DNA from: Escherichia phage 348Ecol098PP
Sequence record: OR062947.1
Strand: one strand, 5' to 3'
Length of the DNA stretch: 64,000 nucleotides
Shown here: in pieces, positions 1 through 63,343 of the stretch
Position numbering within the stretch: position 1 is the first letter of the stretch
Layout of the letters: every line of letters starts with the position of its first letter
The notes under the pieces: generated by a model
The model's input: the letters and a program-made list of their open reading frames with translations, nothing else
Told to the model about the DNA's origin: nothing
Database searches by the model: none
Made by a program: the position numbers and the translations under genes

Positions 1-70
1 TAAAAAGGTTCCTGCGCCATGGTGGCACAAAGACTCTGAATACTATCAAAATCTTAAAAAGGAAAATGCA

Positions 71-382
71 TTGTTTGAAGGCAATATTACAGCAACACCA
101 GTCGGTAATGCAGAGGTTCTAGGCGCATATTCTCCAGCACAATCTGGTATGTTTAAAGGTTTGCCAAATGTGTGCAAACTGTCGGCAGTAAAACTAAATG
201 TTTCTAATGACCTTCTTCCGGCCGAAGATTATCATTACAACCAAATCAAGGCTACTGTAGACCAACTGTCCGTTGAACTTGACAAAGCACAAGCTAAGCT
301 TCGTGATGCTCAACAGGTGGTGACCAATCTCCAGTTGCAGTACTCTAAACTTTTTAACGCAATGAATGCATTAAAATCATAA
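71..382 (+). CDS. hypothetical protein; frame is open back to the window edge, so this may be the 3' part of a longer gene (TTG at 71 only a possible start)
   Basis: ORF track; no in-frame stop between nt 2 and 71; AAGGA 5 nt upstream of TTG; coiled-coil-like C-terminus. Confidence 0.4.
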   Translation: MFEGNITATPVGNAEVLGAYSPAQSGMFKGLPNVCKLSAVKLNVSNDLLPAEDYHYNQIKATVDQLSVELDKAQAKLRDAQQVVTNLQLQYSKLFNAMNALKS

Positions 383-386
383 AATA

Positions 387-416
387 GTTTACAACCAAGG
401 ATGGTTGGAGTATAAT
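387..416 (+). promoter_or_regulatory. early-type promoter, exact copy of 42228-42257
   Basis: GTTTAC-N18-TATAAT; 29 nt upstream of ORF 445. Confidence 0.55.
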
Positions 417-444
417 GAATCTATCTTAACGAGAGGAAAATATT

Positions 445-1392
445 ATGACACGTTCACATTACATTGAATACTTTGCAGGTCTTATCGCTAACGCTCACGC
501 TCAACGTGCTACTGGTGCTTGGACTGATGTTCCACATAAAGGTGTGGTTTATAGTATTCTTCGTGATTTTCTTACATACACAGGCCAAGAAAATCATATC
601 TGTAAAGATACTCAAAATGCATATTCTCATTCATTAGGGACACTGCTTCAATGGTTCAAACGTTCTCGTTTATTATCTTCTACTGTAGCTCGCGATAACA
701 TTAAAAACTTTATGAAGCCGAGCTTTATTAAATCTGTGACATCTAAAACCGATTTGGTTGAATTCACTATTGTTAATGATGTTAAAAAGACTCATTTGGC
801 TGATTGGTTATCTACCATTCCTGAAACTAAATTTGCTGATAAATTTGCTTGTGAATTCAATAACCAAGTGAATATGCTTTTTAAACATTCTCGTAAATTA
901 TTCACAGGCGGCGATGATCGTACAAATACAGTTCATGCTAAAGATTGGGTTACTGCAGTGTTCAAACCAACCGGTAATGGTACCGCATCATTATCAATTG
1001 ATATTCAGGTTCCTTATTATTACTCACGTAATCTCGGCACCATGAAAGCTGAAGAAATTAAGAAGCACAATAAAACCATTCGTTCGTTGTCTTATAAACT
1101 TCGCATGATGTTAAGAATCATGGACGTGGTAGAAATGTATGATGAAACCGAAGATAACGGTTCAATGTTATACAGTTCTCGCATTCAAATTAAGTTGAAG
1201 AACCCTAACGAGTATAAGCCTAAGCCTATTAAAGAGCCTAAAGCAGAAAAAGTTGATAACTTAAGAGAAGAACGCGAATATCTCAAATCTCGTCTGAAAG
1301 AAGTCGAAGCCCAGATTGCAGAACAAACTAAATCGTTAAAAGCTCTGAATGCGAAAGCGGATGGTTTACGAAATGCCATTGAGGTGTTATAA
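445..1392 (+). CDS. hypothetical protein, 315 aa, K/E-rich coiled-coil C-terminus
   Basis: ORF track; RBS GAGAGGAAAA upstream; early promoter 387-416 upstream. Confidence 0.7.
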   Translation: MTRSHYIEYFAGLIANAHAQRATGAWTDVPHKGVVYSILRDFLTYTGQENHICKDTQNAYSHSLGTLLQWFKRSRLLSSTVARDNIKNFMKPSFIKSVTSKTDLVEFTIVNDVKKTHLADWLSTIPETKFADKFACEFNNQVNMLFKHSRKLFTGGDDRTNTVHAKDWVTAVFKPTGNGTASLSIDIQVPYYYSRNLGTMKAEEIKKHNKTIRSLSYKLRMMLRIMDVVEMYDETEDNGSMLYSSRIQIKLKNPNEYKPKPIKEPKAEKVDNLREEREYLKSRLKEVEAQIAEQTKSLKALNAKADGLRNAIEVL

Positions 1393-1697
1393 TGAAACTA
1401 CGTCTTTTAGAGGATATTGATATGAACACTAATCACCGCTTGGTTAAGTTTATTGACGATAGTTCAAAGATTGAATTTGTTCAGCGAGATAAAATCCACG
1501 GTGAAGAAGAGTTCGTTCCTCCGGCATGGAACGAAATCATGAAAATGGTTGAACGACGTGAAAATGCTGCCAAATCGGCAGCAAAACATCCATGCCCGGA
1601 ATGTGGAACTATCCAAGTCCAACTGGTTAACTGGACCACTGATAACTTGAAATTGAAATGCCGTAAATGCTTCCACAAATTTGAGAGAACATTATAA
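1392..1697 (+). CDS. small zinc-ribbon protein (CPECG...CRKC)
   Basis: ORF track; ATGA overlap with upstream stop; four-Cys motif. Confidence 0.65.
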   Translation: MKLRLLEDIDMNTNHRLVKFIDDSSKIEFVQRDKIHGEEEFVPPAWNEIMKMVERRENAAKSAAKHPCPECGTIQVQLVNWTTDNLKLKCRKCFHKFERTL

Positions 1698-2110
1698 TGA
1701 GATATAGCCTTCGTTGTTTTATTGCAGCTTTAGTTTTTGCCATCATTCCATTCATTTGGAACAGCCAGAATACTTACATGGAAACTAAAGTAATTCCTGT
1801 GGAGGTAGTGGAATTAATCTCAGGCCAATCTACAGGAAAATATTCTAAATTAGAATTTATTGCAGTCTATAAAGATGAGCAAGGACGAGTTTTTGACAGG
1901 CGTGTATCACCGTCGTTTTATACGCTTCTGAATAAAGGTGATACGATAGCTATAGAAATTCGTGAGATGGATATCAAACAAACTACTAAAGATAACCTGA
2001 TTTGGTTCTTTGGTACGGTGTTGTTGGTTTCTATCTGTATCACAGGTTTTATTACATGTATTGTATTTGGCGTTGCATATTTAATCGATGAAAGGAAAAA
2101 TAATGTTTAA
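1697..2110 (+). CDS. membrane protein (two hydrophobic segments)
   Basis: ORF track; hydrophobic N- and C-terminal helices; translational coupling. Confidence 0.65.
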   Translation: MRYSLRCFIAALVFAIIPFIWNSQNTYMETKVIPVEVVELISGQSTGKYSKLEFIAVYKDEQGRVFDRRVSPSFYTLLNKGDTIAIEIREMDIKQTTKDNLIWFFGTVLLVSICITGFITCIVFGVAYLIDERKNNV

Positions 2111-2366
2111 AGTGTACGGGTATGACTCTACTATTCATAAATGCATTTATTGTGATAATGCGAAACGATTGCTGACTGTTAAGAAACAGCCATTCGAATT
2201 CATTAATGTTATGCCAGAAAAAGGTGTGTTCGACGATGAGAAAATTACTGAGCTTCTTGTTAAGCTTGGACGCGAATCACAAGTTGGATTGACTATGCCT
2301 CAAGTGTTTGCTCCTGACGGAAGTCACATTGGTGGATTTGATCAACTGCGAGAATATTTTAAATGA
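2103..2366 (+). CDS. nrdC: glutaredoxin/thioredoxin NrdC
   Basis: MFKVYGYDS...CIYC active site; near-identical in length and sequence pattern to T4 NrdC; ATG at 2103 chosen over ORF-track start 2088. Confidence 0.9.
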   Translation: MFKVYGYDSTIHKCIYCDNAKRLLTVKKQPFEFINVMPEKGVFDDEKITELLVKLGRESQVGLTMPQVFAPDGSHIGGFDQLREYFK

Positions 2367-2578
2367 TGCTTGAAGGAACTGATTATATCCATGACTACCG
2401 TGGAAACGCGGTATATGTAGGTGATGAAGTTGCAGTTTACTATGGGTATGGAACTTTGATGACAGCCAAGGTTATTCAAATTAAAAATAATCGTGCTAAA
2501 CTCGAAGTTTATTATTCTAATGGCGAAAAGTCTATTTCTAAATGGAAATACGGCGATTGCATTGTTAAACTGGGGTAA
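2363..2578 (+). CDS. hypothetical protein
   Basis: ORF track; ATGA overlap with nrdC stop. Confidence 0.55.
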   Translation: MMLEGTDYIHDYRGNAVYVGDEVAVYYGYGTLMTAKVIQIKNNRAKLEVYYSNGEKSISKWKYGDCIVKLG

Positions 2579-2580
2579 AT

Positions 2581-2751
2581 ATGATTTACGATATTAGTGC
2601 AGCAAGAGCTCCATCAATGGTTACTATTCCTGTTGAAGAATTAGATCGTCTTCAGAAAATTGAAGAGCTTCTTTGGGAAATTGAATCTGATTTGCCATCT
2701 GGGCTAGAATCCTGGGTTGATTATGAAGAGCTCAATAAGCTCCGCGGTTAA
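2581..2751 (+). CDS. hypothetical small acidic protein (56 aa)
   Basis: ATG at 2581 to TAA at 2749-2751, manually translated; below ORF-track size cutoff. Confidence 0.4.
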   Translation: MIYDISAARAPSMVTIPVEELDRLQKIEELLWEIESDLPSGLESWVDYEELNKLRG

Positions 2752-2879
2752 ACCATGGTATTCGGCTCGATGGGAGACGGTCGAGCCAGACGTCGAAACA
2801 GTTTACAACGACGAAGAAACGTGTTATGATGAACCTTCAATAAATGAATTAATTGATATGGAAATGGGAAGAGATTATT

Positions 2880-3050
2880 ATGCAAGTTAAATTATTATAC
2901 CGTTTATTAAAAAATGGCAAGCATGATTGGTATTTGCTTATTAAAACCGATCCGAATTTTTTCTCTGGACAACCATTTACAGTTCGTCCTACTAAACGTC
3001 AGCTTCGCAAAGCTAAACGTTCTCATCGAGACTTTTATAACGTTTACTAA
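2880..3050 (+). CDS. hypothetical small basic protein
   Basis: ATG 2880 with GGGAAGAG RBS; in frame with ORF-track ORF 2853..3050. Confidence 0.45.
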   Translation: MQVKLLYRLLKNGKHDWYLLIKTDPNFFSGQPFTVRPTKRQLRKAKRSHRDFYNVY

Positions 3051-3052
3051 AT

Positions 3053-3060
3053 TATAAATA
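3053..3060 (+). promoter_or_regulatory. late promoter core TATAAATA upstream of gene 49
   Basis: exact TATAAATA 30 nt upstream of the gene 49 ATG. Confidence 0.6.
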
Positions 3061-3083
3061 CCCTTATCTATTTAAGGTAAGGG
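3061..3083 (+). promoter_or_regulatory. RNA hairpin (CCCTTA / TAAGGG) overlapping the gene 49 Shine-Dalgarno
   Basis: 6-bp inverted repeat 3061-3066 / 3078-3083, right arm contains the AAGG RBS; late promoter would start transcription inside the left arm. Confidence 0.5.
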
Positions 3084-3089
3084 TTTATC

Positions 3090-3563
3090 ATGTTATTATC
3101 AGGCGCAAAATATAAAGAAGAAAAACAAAAATTTTATGATGCACAGAATGGTAAGTGTCCTATTTGCCACCGTGAATTAGACCCTGATGTTCAAGGTAAC
3201 CATCTTGACCACGACCATGAATTAAACGGGCCAAAAGCAGGTAGAGTTCGTGGGTTACTCTGTAATCTGTGCAATGCAGCAGAAGGTCAAATGAAGCATA
3301 AGTTCAACCGTTCCGGTCTTAAAAGACGTGATGTCGACTACCTCGAATGGCTTGAAGCTCTTCTTGCTTATTTGAAACAAGATTATTCTGATAATAATAT
3401 CCATCCTAATTTTGTTCCAGACAAAACTAAAGAGTTCTCAAGACTAGGTAAAGAGGAAATGATGTCCGAGATGCTTCAAAGAGGATTTGAATATAATGAA
3501 TCTGATACCAAAACACAATTAATAGCTTCATTCAAAAAGCAGCTTAGAAAGAGTTTAAAATGA
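3090..3563 (+). CDS. 49: endonuclease VII (Holliday junction resolvase)
   Basis: 157 aa; MLL.G..YKEEKQKFYDAQNGKC.IC.REL... HLDHDHELNGPKAG.VRGLLCNLCNAAEG matches T4 gp49 recalled from memory. Confidence 0.92.
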   Translation: MLLSGAKYKEEKQKFYDAQNGKCPICHRELDPDVQGNHLDHDHELNGPKAGRVRGLLCNLCNAAEGQMKHKFNRSGLKRRDVDYLEWLEALLAYLKQDYSDNNIHPNFVPDKTKEFSRLGKEEMMSEMLQRGFEYNESDTKTQLIASFKKQLRKSLK

Positions 3564-8650: not shown

Positions 8651-8659
8651 TAATGTACA

Positions 8660-8693
8660 ACGATAGGAAGACATGTTATTATCTTCCTATCGT
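8660..8693 (+). terminator. 12-bp stem hairpin after ORF 8450..8650
   Basis: ACGATAGGAAGA ... TCTTCCTATCGT inverted repeat. Confidence 0.4.
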
Positions 8694-8713: not shown

Positions 8714-8953
8714 ATGGAACAAGAATTAGACATTACTACATCGAAAAAACGTCTTGAAGTCGTAGTGAATGGTTCAACTATTAAGTTTGTATATGACACT
8801 TTAACTGATGCTATTACCGTTAGTTGTGGTGGAAAGGCTTTTAGTCTAGATTCTACTGAAAACAAATACCCGTTCTATAAAGGTATCTTTGATATGGGTG
8901 TTGATATCAGTGTTCGTCAAGCAAACTATTTACATTATCTTATCACGAAATAA
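8714..8953 (+). CDS. hypothetical protein
   Basis: ORF track; RBS GAGGAAAA. Confidence 0.6.
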   Translation: MEQELDITTSKKRLEVVVNGSTIKFVYDTLTDAITVSCGGKAFSLDSTENKYPFYKGIFDMGVDISVRQANYLHYLITK

Positions 8954-8982
8954 TGCACAAACTCTTGAGAGCAGAGTATAAT
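8954..8982 (+). promoter_or_regulatory. early-type promoter with hairpin-forming spacer (copy 1 of a 34-bp element)
   Basis: TGCACA-N18-TATAAT; spacer contains TGAGAGCA/TGCTCTCA inverted repeat; identical element at 53806-53839. Confidence 0.4.
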
Positions 8983-9019
8983 GCTCTCATTGGATAATAA
9001 AACAACCGAGGAAAATAAT

Positions 9020-12776: not shown

Positions 12777-14461
12777 AATCATTTAAATTAAATCGTGTTC
12801 GTTATCAAAACATCATGTCGGTAGGTGGGAATCCTATTGACATCCAATTAGATAAAGTCCAAAAGACATTAATCACTGGTAAAAATGGTGGTGGTAAATC
12901 TACGATGTTAGAAGCCATTACTTTCGGACTTTTCGGTAAACCATTTCGTGATGTTAAGAAAGGGCAAATCATTAATAGCACGAACAAGAAAGAGCTCTTA
13001 GTTGAGCTTTGGATGGAATTCGATGGTAAAAAATACTTCATTAAACGTGGCCAAAAGCCCAATATTTTCGAAATCTCCGTTGACGGTGTTCGTCTCGATG
13101 AATCTGCCAGCAGTCGTGACTTCCAAGAAGAATTTGAACGTAGCATCGGAATGTCATACGCGTCTTTTAAACAAATCGTTGTGCTTGGGACGGCAGGGTA
13201 TACCCCTTTCATGGCTCTTAGCACCCCTGCTCGTAGAAAACTTGTCGAAGACCTTTTAGAAGTCGGCACACTCGCTGAAATGGATAAAATCAATAAGTCT
13301 CAAGTTCGAGAACTTAATTCCCAGGGACAAGTTCTCGATGCCAAGAAAGATGGTGTTATCCAACAAATTAAGATTTATAACGAGAATATCGAACGTCAAA
13401 AGAAATTATCTGGTGATAATGTAGCGCGTCTACAGAATATGTATGATGACCTAGCCAAAGAAGCTCGTTCATTAAAAGCAGAAATCGAAGAAGCTAATGA
13501 GCGACTACTTAATATCGTTCTTGATGAAGACCCTACTGAGGCATTCAACAAGATCGGACAAGAAGCATTCTTGATTAAATCTAAAATCGACTCATATAAC
13601 AAAGTTATTAAGATGTATCATGACGGTGGCACATGTCCTACTTGTGCGTCACAGTTGCACCAGGGTGACCCTATTGTCTCTAAGATTACCGATAAGCTTC
13701 ATGAATGTAATCACTCATTCGAGCAACTTACATGTCACAGAGATAATCTGAGTGTCCTAGTGGACGAATATAGAGCTAATGTTAAGACTAAACAGGACCT
13801 TGCATCTGATATTCGTACCAAGAAACAAGCAATGATTGCCACTATTGATAAAGCTAAGAAAGTTAAAGCTGCAATAGAACAAGCCTCGGCGGAATTTATC
13901 GACCATGCCGATGAGATAGCTTTGCTTCAAAAAGAACTTGATAAAATCATTAAAACAAAATCAGATATCGTTCTTGAAAAATACCATCGTGGTATTATCA
14001 CAGATATGTTAAAAGATTCTGGTATTAAAGGTGCTATCATTAAAAAATACGTGCCTCTGTTCAACAAGCAGATTAACCATTATCTTAAAATCATGGAAGC
14101 TGATTACGTGTTTTCTATTGACGAAGAATTCAATGAATCTATAAAATCACGTGGCCGCGAAGAGTTCAGTTATGCTTCATTTAGTCAAGGTGAAAAAGCA
14201 CGTATCGATATCGCGTTATTGTTTACATGGCGAGATATTGCTGAAAAGGTCTCTGGTGTTAGAATCAATACATTAATTATGGACGAAGTCATGGATTCCG
14301 CGACTGATTCTGAAGGTATTAAAGCTATTTCAACAATTCTTAACTCTCTAACCGATGCAAACGTGTTTATAATTAGTCACAGAGACCATGACCCACAAGC
14401 TTATGGACAGCATTTGCAAATGAGCAAAGTTGGACGATTTACTGTAATGAAAGCCTCTTAA
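12773..14461 (+). CDS. 46: recombination endonuclease subunit gp46 (Rad50/SbcC-like ATPase)
   Basis: 562 aa; Walker A GKNGGGKST, zinc hook CPTC, signature/Walker B near C-terminus. Confidence 0.92.
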   Translation: MKSFKLNRVRYQNIMSVGGNPIDIQLDKVQKTLITGKNGGGKSTMLEAITFGLFGKPFRDVKKGQIINSTNKKELLVELWMEFDGKKYFIKRGQKPNIFEISVDGVRLDESASSRDFQEEFERSIGMSYASFKQIVVLGTAGYTPFMALSTPARRKLVEDLLEVGTLAEMDKINKSQVRELNSQGQVLDAKKDGVIQQIKIYNENIERQKKLSGDNVARLQNMYDDLAKEARSLKAEIEEANERLLNIVLDEDPTEAFNKIGQEAFLIKSKIDSYNKVIKMYHDGGTCPTCASQLHQGDPIVSKITDKLHECNHSFEQLTCHRDNLSVLVDEYRANVKTKQDLASDIRTKKQAMIATIDKAKKVKAAIEQASAEFIDHADEIALLQKELDKIIKTKSDIVLEKYHRGIITDMLKDSGIKGAIIKKYVPLFNKQINHYLKIMEADYVFSIDEEFNESIKSRGREEFSYASFSQGEKARIDIALLFTWRDIAEKVSGVRINTLIMDEVMDSATDSEGIKAISTILNSLTDANVFIISHRDHDPQAYGQHLQMSKVGRFTVMKAS

Positions 14462-15174
14462 TGAGGCTTATGTTTACAGTTATCAAAATGCCAACGACGC
14501 ATATTAGCAGGGATCCCTATTTTATCGCAATGAGGACATTTAATTTTCTTGTCCTCTTTTTTCTTTCTGTTAGGATTTGATTTACAGAATTTTATATGCG
14601 GCTTTAACGCCGATAACTTAGTAGTTAAGCCACAAAACGGACAAGAATCTTCTTTCCAAATTTTCGTGGCCATGGTTTTAATTATTTTATCTTTTGTTTC
14701 TTGATCAAGTTTTACTATTTTAGGCGTAGGGCCTTGTTTACAGTTATCAAAATGCCAACGTCTCATGTTTCCTTCAGTGCCGGTTAAACCGCAGTGTGGA
14801 CATGTAATCTTTGGTTTATTTTTTGCCGACTCAGACATTTTCTTACGAGTTTCAGCAGTGAATTCTTTGTTCTTTTGAACTTCTTGATTCTTACGTCGAA
14901 GCCATCCAAATAATTTGTTTTTGCTTCTATCTGCTTTAGGAGATGAGATAGTCATCATACGAGCAGCATATATTAAAGAGGCATTATCTGGATGGATTTT
15001 TACCAACAGTTGATGTGCCAAATAATGTTCTTCCGGTGTTAAGTCTACTAAGTTTAAAGCATCATCACTTCCACCTAAACATTGTGGTATAATGTGATGA
15101 CGTTCTGTATAACCATCTAAACTTCTTGATTTAGCATTGGTGATAAGCTTTTCGTATATTGAGTTATAATTCAT
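14458..15174 (-). CDS. HNH homing endonuclease-like protein with duplicated zinc-finger modules
   Basis: HHIIPQCLGGSDDALNLVDLTPEEHYLAH HNH motif; three CPxCG modules, two ending RRWHFDNCK; convergent with gene 46. Confidence 0.75.
   Translation of the reverse strand: MNYNSIYEKLITNAKSRSLDGYTERHHIIPQCLGGSDDALNLVDLTPEEHYLAHQLLVKIHPDNASLIYAARMMTISSPKADRSKNKLFGWLRRKNQEVQKNKEFTAETRKKMSESAKNKPKITCPHCGLTGTEGNMRRWHFDNCKQGPTPKIVKLDQETKDKIIKTMATKIWKEDSCPFCGLTTKLSALKPHIKFCKSNPNRKKKEDKKIKCPHCDKIGIPANMRRWHFDNCKHKPH
14471..14496. repeat. 26-bp perfect direct repeat, copy 1 (copy 2 at 14736-14761) inside HNH gene
   Basis: TGTTTACAGTTATCAAAATGCCAACG found twice 265 bp apart. Confidence 0.85.
14736..14761. 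repeat. 26-bp perfect direct repeat, copy 2
   Basis: identical to 14471-14496. Confidence 0.85.
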
Positions 15175-32104: not shown

Positions 32105-32353
32105 ATGGAATTATTCGTAGCTAGTTCAGTAGCAGTTTTAATCGCAGGTATTGGTTCAATCATCATTTACATGTTGCCTTGGGTAATCGCACTTATTCGT
32201 GGCACAAAAAGCACAACAGCAATCTTCTTTGTATCTTTACTCTTTAACTGGACGATGGTTGGTTGGATTGGAACTTTAATTTGGTCTATCGTTGCCGAAA
32301 AGAAATCTGCTCAGCAGCCTCAACAAGTAATTATTATTCGCGAAAAAGAATAA
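32105..32353 (+). CDS. inner-membrane protein (two TM helices)
   Basis: hydrophobic segments; GAGGAAA RBS. Confidence 0.7.
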   Translation: MELFVASSVAVLIAGIGSIIIYMLPWVIALIRGTKSTTAIFFVSLLFNWTMVGWIGTLIWSIVAEKKSAQQPQQVIIIREKE

Positions 32354-32357
32354 ACTT

Positions 32358-32387
32358 GTTTACATTATAGATGGACTATAGTATAGT
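32358..32387 (+). promoter_or_regulatory. early-type promoter
   Basis: GTTTAC-N17/18-TATAGT. Confidence 0.45.
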
Positions 32388-32416
32388 AGTCCTATCAAAT
32401 CAACTAAGGAGTTAAA

Positions 32417-41544: not shown

Positions 41545-42222
41545 ATGAGCACTGATGTTATTATAGATTTTGAAACATTCGGCAATACATCAAAAGCGGC
41601 TGTTATTGACCTTGCGGTTATTGCATATAATTCCGACCCTGAAGTTGTTGAATCATTTGAAGAACTTGTTCAACGAGGTAAGCGAATTAAATTTAATTTA
41701 GCTTCTCAGAAAGGGAAGCGAGTTTTCGCTAAATCCACTATGAAATGGTGGAAAGAACAATCGGCTGACGCACGTAAAAACTTGACTCCGTCTGAAGACG
41801 ATGTCACTACGCTTGAAGGCATTAAAATCTTTTTAGACTATTGCCGAGCTAATAAAGTTGACCAATGGAAATCACAGATGTGGTGCCGTGGTATGAGCTT
41901 TGACTTCCCGATCTTAGTCGATTTGATTCGTGACCTTTATCGTGATGAAGGTGTTCTTGAACCAGATATTGATACTGATAAATTAGAACCGGTTAAATTC
42001 TGGGCTCAACGAGATATTCGTACTGCAATCGAAGCTTACTCGTTGACACGAGGATTAAGTATGTGTCCATTACCGATGGGTACGCTAAAAGGATTCGTTG
42101 CCCATGATAGTATTCATGATTGTGCTAAAGATATTTTGATGTTAAAATATGCTCAGCGTTATGCGCTTGGCCTTGAAGATGTCCCTGAGAATCCTGACCC
42201 GTTAAGTGTAAAACAGCGATAA
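41545..42222 (+). CDS. dexA: exonuclease A DexA (DEDD 3'-5' exonuclease)
   Basis: 225 aa; N-terminal IIDFETFG exo motif. Confidence 0.85.
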   Translation: MSTDVIIDFETFGNTSKAAVIDLAVIAYNSDPEVVESFEELVQRGKRIKFNLASQKGKRVFAKSTMKWWKEQSADARKNLTPSEDDVTTLEGIKIFLDYCRANKVDQWKSQMWCRGMSFDFPILVDLIRDLYRDEGVLEPDIDTDKLEPVKFWAQRDIRTAIEAYSLTRGLSMCPLPMGTLKGFVAHDSIHDCAKDILMLKYAQRYALGLEDVPENPDPLSVKQR

Positions 42223-42227
42223 AACCA

Positions 42228-42257
42228 GTTTACAACCAAGGATGGTTGGAGTATAAT
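42228..42257 (+). promoter_or_regulatory. early promoter, exact copy of the element at 387-416
   Basis: GTTTACAACCAAGGATGGTTGGAGTATAAT identical at both sites. Confidence 0.55.
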
Positions 42258-42288
42258 CTTTCTATCTTAACCAAACAGGAAAAACATT

Positions 42289-42783
42289 ATGAATATCAAT
42301 ACTATGGCTACTTACATCCTGAAAGACGAAAAACAAATCAACTGGTACGGTGCTTCAGTGCGAGCTTATGAAAAGTTTTGTGAAATTTTAGGTGCCACTC
42401 AAGGTAATAGTTTCACTATTGTTAACTTCATCAAACAAGTTGAAGGCCCTTGGTTATTCTTAGAAATTAAAAATTCATACGGTACAATTTCTACTACTGC
42501 CATTCCAAGCACCGACTTTGAACTGTTGATTGAAGAAGCACCTGTTAAAGATGGTCTCCACTTTGATATGGATATCGTTTGTATGTACGGTACTCTGATT
42601 AAGCCTATTGAGCCTACTGATTTGTTGTGTAAATATGTTTCAATTCGACGCCCATTCGATGGTCCGGTAAATGGATGGGTAACTGACCAGTGGATTGAAG
42701 ATGGGGTTGAACTTCTGAACGTTGTTCATGCCGGTGATTTTAGTGTGGTTCCACGTAGTGCAGTAGTTAATATTCTAAATTAA
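42289..42783 (+). CDS. hypothetical protein, member 1 of a three-gene tandem paralog family
   Basis: shared C-terminal motif GW/F-x-x-DQW-I/V-EDG-x-x-L-x-N-V/I-V. Confidence 0.7.
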   Translation: MNINTMATYILKDEKQINWYGASVRAYEKFCEILGATQGNSFTIVNFIKQVEGPWLFLEIKNSYGTISTTAIPSTDFELLIEEAPVKDGLHFDMDIVCMYGTLIKPIEPTDLLCKYVSIRRPFDGPVNGWVTDQWIEDGVELLNVVHAGDFSVVPRSAVVNILN

Positions 42784-42784
42784 T

Positions 42785-42815
42785 GTTGTACATCCAAGGA
42801 TGGATGGAGTATAAT
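42785..42815 (+). promoter_or_regulatory. early-type promoter, diverged copy of 42228-42257
   Basis: GTTGTACATCCAAGGATGGATGGAGTATAAT. Confidence 0.45.
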
Positions 42816-42845
42816 GAATTCAACTTAAACAAAGAGAGAAAAAAT

Positions 42846-43376
42846 ATGATTACTATTGGTGAAATCCTTCGTGTATCTCCTGCTTCTCGTTCTAAAGCTG
42901 CAGGTCGTCTGGTTGAAGTAGCAGGGCTTCGTACTAACGGCATGGGACGTGTTAAAGAAGTTAAAGTTCGAATCATCCCCAGTTTTGGCGGACAAGATGC
43001 CCAGTATGCTTACGTAAGTCCTAAATTCCTGGAAAAACATATACGAGTCCAATTTGCTTCAAGCGAAGAAGTTGCACCTGCACACTTTGCTTCTGTTGAA
43101 GAAGTTGAATCACGTGATGGATACGTATGTGAATCCACTGAGCCTAATGTACAGTTCAAATGGGCCCTTTGCAAAGGCGTTGAATTTATAACCGATAAAG
43201 AATTTGATTACATCGACGAATACGGTTATCCAAGCAAAACTGATACTATGTGCGGCTTCATCAGCGACCAATGGGTTGAAGATGGTAAAAAGCTATACAA
43301 TATTGTATTCTTAGGTGACTTCCGAGTTGTTGAAGAATCTGAAATCACTCGCTATGTGTCTCCACGTAAAGCTTAA
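42846..43376 (+). CDS. hypothetical protein, paralog family member 2
   Basis: ATG 42846 with AGAGAGAAAAAA RBS; C-terminal GFISDQWVEDGKKLYNIVF motif. Confidence 0.7.
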   Translation: MITIGEILRVSPASRSKAAGRLVEVAGLRTNGMGRVKEVKVRIIPSFGGQDAQYAYVSPKFLEKHIRVQFASSEEVAPAHFASVEEVESRDGYVCESTEPNVQFKWALCKGVEFITDKEFDYIDEYGYPSKTDTMCGFISDQWVEDGKKLYNIVFLGDFRVVEESEITRYVSPRKA

Positions 43377-43809: not shown

Positions 43810-43838
43810 GTTTACTTCTCCTCTGGATTTGGTATTAT
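43810..43838 (+). promoter_or_regulatory. early-type promoter
   Basis: GTTTAC-N17-TATTAT. Confidence 0.45.
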
Positions 43839-43864: not shown

Positions 43865-44389
43865 ATGTTAGTTTACCGCGTAGAACGTAGTTTTTGTACT
43901 CAACGTGAATCATTACCAGGAATTGCTATCAAAGACGGTAAAGCCGTCAGAATTTGGGAAACCTCTTGGAATAAAGAACCTCGTTCGCCATACGGTTGGT
44001 CGGGCACCGACAACTCTGAAGAAACATGGGAGTTCCTTGATAAGCATGGAATACTCTCAGGTAACTTCTACCATCATGGCGACAACTATAATGTCCCTAA
44101 TCGTCCTACAGTAAATGAAGACAAACTCCTTGAACAAAATATCTTAAGATACTATAGAATTGATCACTCATTTGAATTGAGTGAAGATTGGGCCCAAGGG
44201 TTCTATTTTGGATTTGAAAGTGTTGACGCGGTTTATGCATGGTTTGATGACCAGGTGGATGTTGAACTCTTGAAAGCTAAAGGATACTACATCGCGGTCT
44301 ATGAAGCGCCTGATTTCATCCTCGGAAGTTGTCAATTAATGTTCAGACGTTCATTGGCAGAACAAGTTGATTTTATTTTGCTAAAATGA
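43865..44389 (+). CDS. hypothetical protein
   Basis: ATG 43865 with AGAGGAGAA RBS. Confidence 0.65.
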   Translation: MLVYRVERSFCTQRESLPGIAIKDGKAVRIWETSWNKEPRSPYGWSGTDNSEETWEFLDKHGILSGNFYHHGDNYNVPNRPTVNEDKLLEQNILRYYRIDHSFELSEDWAQGFYFGFESVDAVYAWFDDQVDVELLKAKGYYIAVYEAPDFILGSCQLMFRRSLAEQVDFILLK

Positions 44390-44446
44390 TGTACAACAAC
44401 TATGGTCTATGATACTATAGACCTATCAAAACAAGAGGAGAATATT

Positions 44447-52539: not shown

Positions 52540-53016
52540 ATGAAGGTGAAGATTGCTGACACTGCTCGGTATTCCCTGAGCCAAAATCCTGGCCAAAACA
52601 AAGAAGATGTAGTTCGACGTTGTAAGGTTGCGGTCTTTGCAGAGTATGTAGTAGCAAATTGGCTAGACGGATATGTTAATAAAGGTATTGAAGATGTAGA
52701 AGACCCGTACACGTATGCATGGGACGTGTTAGCTCATCCTAAATACTGCGGGTTGCGTGTAGAAGTCAAGACACACCAGATAGATTCTAAATGGATTTCG
52801 GTTACCACAGGATACAGCGGTGATTATCCAGGTGGTAATGGAATCAATATAGGGCCCTTCTTGAACCATCGAGTCGCAGATTGCATTATTATATTAGATG
52901 TCAAAGAAACCTCACCTGACGTCTTCTCTTATTCTATAAAGTTCGTGGGAGACCATGAAGACCTAAAGAAAATCGTCCGCAAGAGCAACTACAACGGGTG
53001 GTATCTTCAACTTTAA
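52540..53016 (+). CDS. hypothetical protein (start uncertain; T4 denB region by synteny, not verified)
   Basis: first ATG after upstream stop, in ORF-track frame 52396..53016. Confidence 0.5.
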   Translation: MKVKIADTARYSLSQNPGQNKEDVVRRCKVAVFAEYVVANWLDGYVNKGIEDVEDPYTYAWDVLAHPKYCGLRVEVKTHQIDSKWISVTTGYSGDYPGGNGINIGPFLNHRVADCIIILDVKETSPDVFSYSIKFVGDHEDLKKIVRKSNYNGWYLQL

Positions 53017-53028
53017 TTTCATAAAAGT

Positions 53029-53059
53029 GTTTACAACTAAGTAGGACTATGATATAGTA
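53029..53059 (+). promoter_or_regulatory. early-type promoter
   Basis: GTTTAC-N17-ATATAGT. Confidence 0.45.
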
Positions 53060-53084
53060 GTCCTATCTAAAAGAGGATAACATC

Positions 53085-53431: not shown

Positions 53432-53538
53432 AAAATGCACTTATTATTGTACTAAGAACAATTTGTGATACGGGTTTTTACATCGCATGTTCGTTCACTG
53501 GATCATGGTTGGCTTTAACATATTTTAATGTAATTTAA
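53428..53538 (+). CDS. small hydrophobic peptide (36 aa)
   Basis: manual translation MKNALIIVLRTICDTGFYIACSFTGSWLALTYFNVI; ATGA coupling. Confidence 0.4.
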   Translation: MKNALIIVLRTICDTGFYIACSFTGSWLALTYFNVI

Positions 53539-53540
53539 TT

Positions 53541-53570
53541 GTTTACAACAAGGTAGGATTATGGTATAGT
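53541..53570 (+). promoter_or_regulatory. early-type promoter
   Basis: GTTTAC-N18-TATAGT. Confidence 0.45.
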
Positions 53571-53598
53571 AGTCCTACTGAAACATGAGGAACACAAA

Positions 53599-53799
53599 AT
53601 GGCTAAGCTTTTTAAAGATGTTGAAATTGGTGAAAAATTTGTCCTGAATAATGGTCAGCAGCTTATTCGTGTAGCTTCTATCGCCGGACAAACTCATAAC
53701 TGTATCGCCCCAACGTGTTGGACTCGATTCTTTATTGAAGATGACACTGAATGTTTAACTGTTGAAGAGCTTTTTGAACGTTCTGATATAGCCGAATAA
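53599..53799 (+). CDS. hypothetical protein
   Basis: ORF track; GAGGAACA RBS. Confidence 0.6.
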   Translation: MAKLFKDVEIGEKFVLNNGQQLIRVASIAGQTHNCIAPTCWTRFFIEDDTECLTVEELFERSDIAE

Positions 53800-53801
53800 A
53801 A

Positions 53802-53831
53802 TTGTACAAACTCTTGAGAGCAGAGTATAAT
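53802..53831 (+). promoter_or_regulatory. early-type promoter with hairpin-forming spacer (copy 2 of 34-bp element at 8957-8990)
   Basis: TTGTAC-N18-TATAAT; identical ACAAACTCTTGAGAGCAGAGTATAATGCTCTCAT. Confidence 0.45.
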
Positions 53832-53875
53832 GCTCTCATGGATTACAAAAACATTAATCAATTGAGGAAATTAGC

Positions 53876-56164: not shown

Positions 56165-56202
56165 GACCTATCAAAACAAAACAACCGAATTGGAGAAATA
56201 AA

Positions 56203-60217: not shown

Positions 60218-63200
60218 TTATGCTAAACGAACGATATAGTTAAAAGCAATGTTTTTAACTGTGTTTTCTGTATTACCTGTACTATTTACAGTGATAGTAT
60301 GACCGTGCGAACCAATTGCTACCGAGTGGGTATGAGCACCAATACCTACAGTATGTGTATGGGCACCAATACCTACAGTATGCGCGTGGTTACCTGTGGT
60401 ATTTGTAGTTCCAGACCAAGAGTGCGTATGGTTACCTTCTGTCGATGACTTTGCAATATATTGGCCTATACCAGGCACGATTTTGTCGCTCGTGGCAAAA
60501 GAAAGAACCTGGGTTCCGCTAATTGCAGTAGCTCCATTAGGATATATTCCTGTTGGTTGATTATTAGGACCCCTTGGACCGGTCTGTGAGTGTTGGTGGT
60601 TCCCTGCTGCGCCAGTAGTACCACTAACGCTATGGTTATGGTTACCTGTTGTGTTGCTGGTTTTAGTACCATAATCGAATGATGAGGTGGTTTTAGTACC
60701 ATAATCGAATGATGAGGTGGTTTTAGTACCCAAATCTGTGCTTGATGCACTTGCACTATGGCTATGAGACTTAATACCATCAGCTTCTGTACTTAATACA
60801 GCACGCCCGGATGGTTTACCCTTGATAGTTTGACCACGCATATCAGGCAGAGCGCCGGAAGGATACACCGCAGCTAACTTAGGATACAAGTCAGTATCAA
60901 ACGTCTGGCCTTCCATGATGGCATAACCTTCAGGAGGTGTATCAGTAGGCCAAGGAATCGGAGCACCAATTGGGTAACTCGAGACAATATCCGTCTTAAG
61001 GTTATTTATTGTGGTATTCAAGTTAGCAAAATTACCAGTGCCGCCAGTGATGTTACCATCAGTACCGAATTGAGCATTACCAACTTTTAATGGTTTTGAA
61101 AAAAGAACATCGTCGGTTCTAAATGCAACCCCATGACCTAATGCATTATTATATAAGTTAAGTTCATCTGAACTACCACTCCCATTACCAACGTACCATT
61201 TAACCGTATTAGCTTTTTTACCCTGAATATAAACAGCGTTGGTCAATGAAGCCGAGTTAATAATAAGCGCGGCGTTATTAGCGTTAATTGTGATAGCTTG
61301 CCCTGATGTTGTTCCACTAGTTTCTACTTTAAATCTTCCACCACCGATATCAACATCATGATCCATGGAAACTTTACCAGTACTTAATGTAATATAGAAC
61401 GGACGTAAATTAGAAATACCACCTGATTCACCAGCATTCTGCGGGGTTGGAATAATATAAAGCTTATCTTCAGAACGACGGAAAATAGCACCGTATTCGG
61501 CATTCCAAATTCTTAATGCATCAGCAGTTCCGCCAATTTTAACTTGTCCAGTAATAGAAGAACCACCTTGGACAAACAAACCATTAGACATGGTAACATT
61601 ACCACCAAAAGAACCTGTACCAGAGGCACTTATATTTCCGAGCCCGACAATATGTCCAGTTTCTACAGTACCATTAAATTTAAAGTTAACCGGACCTACT
61701 GTTTGACCTGATGCAGGAGCAGTGCGTTGTGCATAAAAATAATATCCATGCCCGTCAGCTAATTCAAAAACTGTTTCACGAGTACGAGCGCCAGATGCGT
61801 TAAATGAATTACCCCACGCTTTAATAGATACATAACTTTTATTCTGACCTGCACGAGTACCACCAGCCCACAGTATAGTTTTAGTACCATCTACTGCTGT
61901 AGGAGCGTCAAGTTGAATACCATCGGGTCTAGCGCCAGTAAGAACTAATCCGTTATCAAATTTAATTCTTTGTATTGAAGATACTGTTCCGTCCGCTCTA
62001 ATAGCAACGCTATTGGAACCGGTTTTAATATCTAAAATTCCTGGGTCAACAATAAGCCCTTCGGCCATACTAACGGACATACGACCTGTACCACGGAAAT
62101 AGTGATACATTTTAGAATTACTGTTATAACCGATATGAGTTTGTCCATCACCGTTATTATTTCCATCAACATCAGTACGCGCAGTAAACATTGCTTGGTT
62201 GTTATTTGGGTAATCCCAAGTAGTACCAGAATTGCGGCTATAACCGACCATCAATTTCTTAGTGCTGTTAATACCGTTATTCAAAATGGTAGCGGATGAA
62301 ATACCGTTAGCCATGAAATCAATAACACCGTCGCGGACCCATTTAATACCTGTATCGTTATCACCAATGGCAATACCAATAGAAATAGCTGAATCCAAAG
62401 GATAACGTCCATTTGTACCATTATCAGGAAGACCTACTGAAATAGATTTACCTGCAGTAATACGCCCACTAGTATCAAACGCCCATTGGAAAGATTCCGG
62501 ACCTATACCAGTCCACCAAGAAATTTCTTGTGGCTTTCCTGAACGACAATCAGCTATTTCATGGAAAATACTAGAAGTATTCGAAGCCCGCATCTTACGG
62601 AGGTAGTTAAGACCATTTGTATTACGGTCAGAGCCATCTGCCGGTGGATTATAAATCCACATAGGTAAAGAAACCCAATCGTATCCAATGTTAGCATTAG
62701 CTACAAATGTTTTTGTACTAAAATTAATATTTTTAGTAACAATTTCAGGACCGGTGATAATACCATTAGCAGAGTTTATATTGCCTGAAGCAGAAATATT
62801 ACCGGTACGAACTTCAATACTACCAGAATCTACGATGAAATTACCATTTCGATTAAAAGTCCAATATTTCGAATCACCAGCTTCATTAATATAGTGAAAT
62901 TTAAAACTACCTTCGTTTACTAATGTACCAGCAGAAAAAGTACCGTCTTTATAACGCTGCTTAATCAGAGGATGGTATTCTGATACTGAGGTAGCAGAGC
63001 TCAAATCCGTAAAGATAGGAGCTTTATTTAGGTGTTGATTTGCCCACGCGCCATTTCCAGCAGTTTTTGGCAAGAATTCAATATACTTTCCTGCATAAAC
63101 AAACTGGTTTCCATTAAGATTATATGTACCGTTTTGTAAATAATCACCATTTTGAGTTACATTACCGTTAATATCCCCGCCCTTAGCAAAGCCTAGGCTA

Positions 63201-63343
63201 ATAATATTACCGAGGTCATCTTTAGTAAAAAGAGTTCGATCTTTTAAGTTTATCGCTAATTCGCCTTCGGCTAATTGTGCTGCAGTAGGATTAACTCCTG
63301 CCACTTTGCTTCTTTTAAATTGTATCTGTTTTAATGTAGCCAT
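60218..63343 (-). CDS. 37: long tail fibre distal subunit gp37 (receptor-binding), 1041 aa
   Basis: N-terminal [39 protein letters not shown]; C-terminal His-x-His repeats; synteny 36-37-38-t. Confidence 0.9.
60336..60389. repeat. 27-bp tandem repeat x2 inside gene 37, encoding HTHTVGIGA His-box repeats
   Basis: GCACCAATACCTACAGTATG repeated at 60336 and 60363. Confidence 0.8.
60661..60730. repeat. 30-bp tandem repeat x2.3 inside gene 37, encoding [10 protein letters not shown] repeats
   Basis: TTTTAGTACCATAATCGAATGATGAGGTGG at 60661 and 60691, partial third copy. Confidence 0.85.

Follow-up and report, generated by a model that had tools for sequence, protein, structure and literature searches.

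The window, by which we mean the whole 64,000-nt stretch of the Escherichia phage 348Ecol098PP genome (OR062947.1) analysed here, is a segment of a Mosigvirus genome (RB69-like, T4-type; Straboviridae, Tevenvirinae) and is 95-97% identical to Mosigvirus coliphages. Its early genes are carried on the + strand, and three similar short elements, named P1, P2, and P3 by their order in the window, lie between genes of that strand (Table 1). The gene ahead of P1, whose ortholog SA79RD_090 is annotated as NrdC.5-like, is placed between P1 and a further copy, P0, outside the window. For the gene behind P1, nrdC.4 is among the annotated features beneath the matching region of the relative JS10. The 164-aa motB.1-like protein encoded behind P2 and the 176-aa MotB ortholog encoded behind P3 share 47% identity with T4 MotB.1 and 43% identity with T4 MotB, respectively.

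Table 1. Positions of the three promoter copies and of the adjoining genes in the window.
Feature	Position	Strand	Description and evidence
nrdC.5-like gene, 3' part (DUF7235)	2..382	+	Cut by the window start; Pfam DUF7235, E 3.5e-39
P1 cassette	380..447	+	Upstream stop codon, A/T-rich tract, promoter, 5' UTR, RBS GAGAGGA, downstream ATG
P1 core	386..416	+	Exact 31-mer; -35 TTTACA 388-393, 17-nt spacer 394-410, -10 TATAAT 411-416
P1 spacer palindrome	392..407		CAACCA-AGGA-TGGTTG; arms 392-397 and 402-407
nrdC.4-like early gene	445..1392	+	315 aa, phrog_1435; behind P1
dexA (exonuclease A)	41545..42222	+	Upstream of P2; Pfam Rv2179c-like exonuclease domain and relatives' annotations
P2 cassette	42220..42291	+	dexA stop codon, promoter, 5' UTR, RBS, ATG
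P2 core	42227..42257	+	Exact 31-mer; -35 42229-42234, -10 42252-42257
P2 palindrome arms	42233-42238 and 42243-42248
motB.1-like gene	42289..42783	+	164 aa; between P2 and P3; Pfam motB (C-terminal part), E 2e-08
P3 cassette	42781..42848	+	Stop codon of the 164-aa gene, promoter, 5' UTR, RBS, ATG at 42846
P3 core	42785..42815	+	26/31; -35 TGTACA 42787-42792, -10 42810-42815
P3 palindrome arms	42791-42796 and 42801-42806		CATCCA-AGGA-TGGATG; symmetric A>T / T>A relative to P1 and P2
MotB ortholog	42846..43376	+	176 aa; behind P3; Pfam motB, E 5.8e-36

The order of elements is the same in each copy, running from the upstream stop codon through an A/T-rich tract, the -35 box, a 17-nt spacer, and TATAAT to the UTR, RBS, and ATG. 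P1 and P2 have the form GTTTACA-N17-TATAAT, which agrees with the sigma-70 consensus at 11 of 12 positions, and P3, with TGTACA-17-TATAAT, agrees at 10 of 12. The tract preceding the -35 box is UP-like (TTAAAATCATAAAAT in P1, AAAACAGCGATAAAACC in P2, and ATATTCTAAATTAAT in P3), and the UTR of the three copies extends for about 28-33 nt before the RBS and ATG. All three are intergenic over their full length, from the upstream stop codon to the downstream RBS and ATG, and are oriented toward orthologs of early genes, namely the nrdC.4-like gene, the motB.1-like gene, and motB. The site orthologous to the repeated 31-mer was labelled a promoter by the depositors of SA79RD, and 57 such early promoters were predicted in RB69 (Nolan et al. 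2006, PMC1524935). The first-pass annotation had called the repeat an early promoter, and the boxes matching at 11 of 12 positions, the intergenic placement 29-33 nt upstream of an RBS and ATG, and the location on the early-gene strand of a T4-type phage all support that name; based on sequence and orthology, P1, P2, and P3 are predicted to be T4-type early promoters.

Just after infection, unmodified host sigma-70 RNA polymerase would bind the GTTTACA and TATAAT boxes across the N17 spacer with the help of the A/T-rich upstream tract, and transcription would start about 7 nt beyond the -10 box, near 423, 42264, and 42822. The predicted transcripts cover the nrdC.4-like gene (from P1), the motB.1-like gene (from P2), and motB (from P3). 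A (C)TATC motif recurs at about +4 to +12 after the -10 box in many early promoters of different cassette families (for example 421-426, 42262-42267, 32391-32396, 53062-53067, and 56170-56175). Additionally, GGAG is found immediately 5' of the -10 box in every copy (408-411, 42249-42252, and 42807-42810). The T4 RegB endoribonuclease recognises the tetranucleotide GGAG in RNA, and transcripts reading through a copy could conceivably be cut by RegB at that point.

P1 and P2 share the 31-nt sequence AGTTTACAACCAAGGATGGTTGGAGTATAAT exactly and in the same orientation, and the identity is bounded by a mismatch on the left (385 T vs 42226 C) and on the right (417 G vs 42258 C). The first-pass annotation had reported an identical pair of 30 bp beginning at 384 and 42225, with a diverged copy at 42785-42815; the identical pair and the diverged copy are real, while the length is 31 rather than 30 and those two starts lie 2 nt too early. 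None of 100 dinucleotide-preserving shuffles yielded two matches to the 31-mer, and by an analytic estimate only about 4e-10 exact repeats of 31 nt would be expected in 64 kb. The likeness of P1 and P2 runs on into the 5' UTR (TCTATCTTAAC), with 90% identity over the 50 nt of 381-430 and 42222-42271. The P3 core is identical to P1 at 26 of 31 positions, and it was missing from a search allowing up to 3 mismatches because it carries 5. Spacer identity was then compared pairwise among the predicted early promoters whose spacer is 17 nt long, and the 120 pairs had a mean of 6.6 of 17 positions; the spacers of P1 and P2 are identical at 17 of 17 positions, and each of them matches that of P3 at 15 of 17. 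Since these values are far above the promoter mean, the likeness goes beyond the -35 and -10 boxes and points to common descent or sequence exchange. A chance repeat was ruled out by the shuffles and by the distribution of spacer identities.

Members of the same promoter family occur in Mosigvirus at up to 4 places per record, giving 583 places in 230 records. The fourth copy, P0, is found in relatives about 1 kb (~1020 bp) upstream of P1, before the nrdC.5-like gene. The first-pass annotation would have given up its proposal if there were neither structural variants nor additional copies genome-wide, and P0 in relatives is such an additional copy. Among the other Mosigvirus loci examined, P1 and P2 carry this same 31-mer, with the one exception being phage SF, in which P1 is one base off. 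Thus, the identity of P1 and P2 is genus-wide, and does not reflect a recent event in this genome.

Comparison with relatives showed that genes lying between neighbouring copies are lost. G2285, AV109, and ESCO47 lack the nrdC.5-like gene, and the junction is located within the promoter repeat, where the P0 upstream flank and -35 box are followed by the shared core and then by the P1 UTR and gene. Since the P0 flank is joined to the P1 UTR and gene, the crossover is placed inside the 26-bp identical core. This P0 x P1 deletion junction was present in 21 of 167 records, counted where at least 80% of the query was covered. Many genomes likewise lack the 164-aa motB.1-like gene; their P2/P3 junctions are of at least three kinds, and a single-piece P2 x P3 deletion junction was found in 16 of the best 40 records. 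In G2285, the P2 -35 box is joined to the P3 spacer (AGTTTACA followed directly by TCCAAGGATGGATGG); in AV118, P2 is retained through its -10 box TATAAT and continues into the P3 UTR; and in AV109, P2 is truncated at GGAG and fused to the whole of P3. These three junction types indicate at least three independent events, and they contradict the idea that all genomes without the gene form one clade with one shared junction. A simple homologous crossover does not account for the AV109 junction, so some of the deletions may have arisen illegitimately or by slippage and only happen to end close to the repeats. At the AV109 site itself (OR352939.1, ~82710-82745), the truncated P2 (...TGGTTGGAG) and the complete P3 remain as two overlapping promoter remnants.

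The P0/P1 and P2/P3 deletions assort independently among genomes. In phi25-307, the 3' end of the nrdC.5-like gene is joined to P1 (100% of the P1 query), yet the 164-aa gene is absent, and JK42 retains the P0 copy preceding the nrdC.5-like gene, yet it also has no 164-aa gene. Since T4 and RB69 have nrdC.5 and motB.1, we infer that the polarity is one of deletion and not of insertion. The copies have an identical core of 26-31 bp in common, and adjacent direct copies have recombined in such a way that the intervening single-gene cassette was excised and one hybrid promoter was left, which would still drive the next gene; presumably this is done by the homologous-recombination and replication machinery of the phage itself, which needs less than 50 bp of homology. 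Promoter-mediated module shuffling, which the first-pass annotation had suggested, is directly supported by the relatives that lack the gene between adjacent copies and have junctions in or at the repeat, and is also in agreement with a motB.2 cassette that is permuted relative to T4 (described below).

The repeated unit is the promoter cassette rather than the gene that follows it. The proteins encoded downstream of P0 and P1 are unrelated to each other, as are those downstream of P1 and P2, and the proteins downstream of P2 and P3 have in common only a 36-aa C-terminal segment with 44% identity. In comparison, the promoter copies are 84-100% identical (26-31 of 31 positions). Because the downstream proteins are largely unrelated while the promoters are nearly identical, the cassette is taken as the repeated unit, and an explanation of the promoter likeness as a by-product of gene duplication was rejected, as any relationship among the downstream proteins is distant at most. 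A related view is that old segmental duplications of a gene together with its promoter left the copies behind as passive relics, with no part in genome plasticity. The genes behind P2 and P3 are tandem MotB-family paralogs, and one tandem duplication could make that pair, although their proteins have diverged much more than their promoters (84%) and the proteins downstream of P0, P1, and P2 provide no relationship of this kind. Recurrent deletions with differing junctions in or at the repeats, moreover, indicate that the copies serve as recombination substrates, and we consider it very unlikely that they are passive relics.

Recombination between distant early regions, which had also been proposed in the first-pass annotation, presents a different case. 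Both chimeric junctions of a P1 x P2 crossover were built and searched against 50,697 phage records, and 0 of 311 and 0 of 205 matching records, respectively, covered at least 80% of the query. With neither P1 x P2 junction in any record, that proposal was not supported. The interval between P1 and P2 contains a gp43-type (family-B) DNA polymerase and a DnaB-type replicative helicase. A crossover between P1 and P2 would delete or duplicate 42 kb including these essential replication genes, and since they lie inside the interval, its product would be non-viable. The exact identity of P1 and P2 probably reflects common origin and selection for a strong promoter, possibly together with short-patch gene conversion. 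Different copies in different genomes have in common a CTTT vs GAAY patch behind the -10 box as well as a GGACGG variant, and gene conversion or concerted evolution among distant copies is only hinted at by these shared patches. We believe that P0 to P3 are most probably paralogous early-promoter cassettes of Mosigvirus, of which neighbours recombine in the fashion of promoter-early stem-loop cassettes (PeSLs), and of which the distant pair owes its identity to common origin and selection.

In P1, P2, and P3, an inverted repeat with a perfect 6-bp stem and a 4-nt loop is located inside the spacer that separates the -35 box from the -10 box. Folded as an 18-mer, the hairpin has an energy of -6.6 to -7.0 kcal/mol (z -3.8 and -2.4). 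Folded in its 55-nt context, it does not stand out from shuffles (z -0.9 to -1.1, with -0.96 for P1), and a 6-bp inverted repeat arises in about 9% of shuffles of the segment. The stem-loop half of a PeSL is thus marginal here. In one GC-rich PeSL of RB49, the stem-loop acts on upstream read-through, and if the hairpin did the same here, the element would be mainly a terminator or attenuator. Its intergenic position right after a stop codon would suit such a role, PeSL stem-loops terminated in one reporter test (PMC2839356), and inverted repeats are over-represented in the early promoters of the window taken as a class; against this, the 6-bp stem has only three G-C pairs and -6.6 kcal/mol, it is followed by GAGTATAAT with no T-run, and its 55-nt fold equals that of shuffles. 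This role for the hairpin is therefore highly improbable. Terminator scans, which for P1 ran over 1..3500, listed nothing terminator-like at the P1, P2, or P3 cassette, and an intrinsic terminator was rejected for this reason and for the weakness of the hairpin.

Within the 64-kb window, the palindrome is found nowhere but at P1, P2, and P3. Its arms are broken in several natural variants, namely GGACGG in P0 of L002 and in P1 of phage SF and ESCO47, TGGTTA in P0 of SF, and the mixed arms CAACCA / CGGATG in ESCO47. The covariation consists of only one symmetric double change (A>T / T>A), set beside several natural variants that break a pair, and a hairpin, a dyad protein site, or hairpin-templated mutation would each fit this double change.

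The palindrome, with half-sites CAACCA / TGGTTG spaced 10 bp from centre to centre, could alternatively be an operator for a dimeric phage or host protein that co-regulates the four units, in which case the identity would be kept by selection for the binding site, and recombination at the copies would be incidental. The confinement of the palindrome to the three promoter copies is in line with an operator, and its second allele, CATCCA / TGGATG, found at P3 and at the Dhakavirus-type nrdC.4-like promoter, is also symmetric, although the single covarying position could be obtained by hairpin-templated mutation as well, and natural variants lose the symmetry while the element persists. The 17-nt spacer is conserved genus-wide, though spacers normally vary freely. 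MotB-family DNA-binding proteins are encoded behind two of the copies, but motB of T4, QL01, and Ge15 is under a different promoter family. In T4 biology, we know of no sequence-specific repressor of early promoters. On this evidence we regard an operator as unlikely. More specifically, it is quite unlikely that the dyad spacer, in both its alleles, is a dedicated site for a phage factor such as a MotB-family protein, acting as an operator or in the targeting of recombination; if it were, the four cassettes would make up an early regulon under common control, or a system for the site-directed exchange of cassettes, and not simple homology patches. We retain the reading of P0 to P3 as paralogous cassettes that serve neighbouring copies as recombination substrates.

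As a class, the early promoters of the window (21 predicted, + strand) folded much better than their shuffles, with a mean fold z of -2.16, compared to -0.19 for random windows (Mann-Whitney p = 2e-7). Most of the early-promoter stems span the -10 box without a T-run after it, and are not canonical terminators; one early promoter, at 8654-8693, has a 12-bp stem of -16.7 kcal/mol. Two cassette families besides that of P1 to P3 are present in the window, and in these the -10 box is enclosed by a stem of much greater strength. One of them is a pair at 8949-9004 and 53798-53853, 44.8 kb apart and 86% identical over 56 nt, with an identical 17-nt spacer and an 8-bp inverted repeat, TGAGAGCA...TGCTCTCA, around the -10 box TATAAT (-13.8 kcal/mol). 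The motB promoters of T4, QL01, and Ge15 are of the same family as this pair, and the changes in their stems keep the pairing (GGGACC...GGTCCC in T4). The other family is found at 32341-32394, 44372-44425, 53012-53065, and 53524-53577, with a TATAGT or TACTAT -10 box enclosed by the inverted repeat TAGGACTA...TAGTCCTA or GGTCTAT...ATAGACC, whose 3' arm would fall at the very start of the element's own transcript. Repeats of another kind were also observed on the - strand. A tandem 30-bp unit, in two exact copies and one 70% copy, lies at 60658-60747 in a 1041-aa ORF (60218-63343), and a 77-nt direct repeat (14471-14547 and 14735-14811, 74% identical and 264 nt apart) lies inside ORF 14458-15174 (238 aa), which is the only sizeable - strand ORF of its region and runs opposite to the early genes around it.

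The arrangement of such cassettes differs between genera. The motB.2 ortholog of the window (gene 43865-44389, promoter 43811-43838, GTTTACTTCTCCTC...) is located downstream of the motB genes, while in T4, QL01, and Ge15 the motB.2 promoter-gene cassette comes directly after dexA, which amounts to a permutation between genera. For Tequatrovirus Ge15, homology to the window sets in at 42278, past the P2 promoter and ahead of the start codon at 42289. Dhakavirus QL01 has a single copy of the 31-mer promoter family, located before its nrdC.4-like gene and carrying the T/A palindrome allele, and the dexA-motB promoters of QL01, T4, and Ge15 are of families other than that of P1 to P3. A pattern scan of IMG/VR for members of the 31-mer family returned 6 loci, a number too small for statistics, but it did reveal the single T/A-allele copy of a Dhakavirus-type genome.

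PeSLs were defined in RB49/phi1 (Arbiol et al. 2010, PMC2839356), where PeSL x PeSL single-ORF deletions and mini-circles were reported, and a subclass with the stem-loop between -35 and -10 has been published (PMC2839356; PMC4122927). The stem-loop of a PeSL may precede or overlap the promoter boxes, fall between them, or follow them closely. PeSLs were later extended to T4/PST and KVP40/nt-1, and it was proposed that all T4-like phages probably have them (Comeau et al. 2014, PMC4122927). The elements described here combine an early promoter with a weak sequence able to form a stem-loop in the spacer, occur as multiple similar copies in variable early regions (nrdC and dexA-motB; three in the window), and bound indels between relatives (P0 x P1 and P2 x P3). 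Terminator or attenuator activity of the stem-loop, another feature of PeSLs, was not predicted for them, as there is no T-run and no match in the scans.

Like the PeSLs of RB49/phi1, the elements comprise an intergenic stop codon, an A/T tract, a sigma-70-type promoter, a stem-loop sequence, an RBS, and an ATG, and they have many copies in variable early regions and single-gene deletions with the crossover within the cassette. They differ in belonging to Mosigvirus and not Krischvirus, in having GTTTACA or TGTACA in place of the -35 box TTGACA, and in the stem, which in RB49/phi1 is made of a G-run and a C-run and here is the A/T-rich, weak CAACCA / TGGTTG with no predicted terminator. With the PeSLs of T4/PST and KVP40/nt-1 they share the T-even consensus TTTACW-N17-TAYWAT and the indels and gene replacements in hyperplastic regions; in contrast, the stem-loop of PST, according to the figure legend, is just upstream of the promoter and often of the form AGNA-loop-TCNT, whereas here it is inside the spacer. 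RB69-like phages and the CCAAGGATGG family are outside the treatment of that study (PMC4122927). The early promoters of T4 and RB69 (PMC1524935) are similar in the GTTTAC -35 box, the TATAAT -10 box, the A-rich UP-like tract, and the position 5' of orthologs of T4 early genes, with the T4 early-promoter consensus taken from Miller et al. 2003 as quoted in the SA79RD annotation. The T4/RB69 promoter papers treat promoters as regulatory signals, unlike the present case of nearly identical paralogous copies and their use in recombination. The literature searched gave no description of the CCAAGGATGG family, nor of PeSLs in RB69-like phages. The promoter shuffling seen here matches the already published PeSL phenomenon of T4-type phages, with agreement in every defining feature that was examined except predicted terminator activity.

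Phage therapy collections make wide use of RB69-like coliphages. The nrdC.5-like and motB.1-like genes are expected to be unstable early genes in production stocks, and hybrid promoters can aid annotation as marks of past deletions. The PeSL model is extended to another genus, Mosigvirus, with no new mechanism opened, and the RB69-like coliphages provide a clean case of natural variation in which short repeated promoter cassettes delimit dispensable single-gene modules that are lost or moved at those points.
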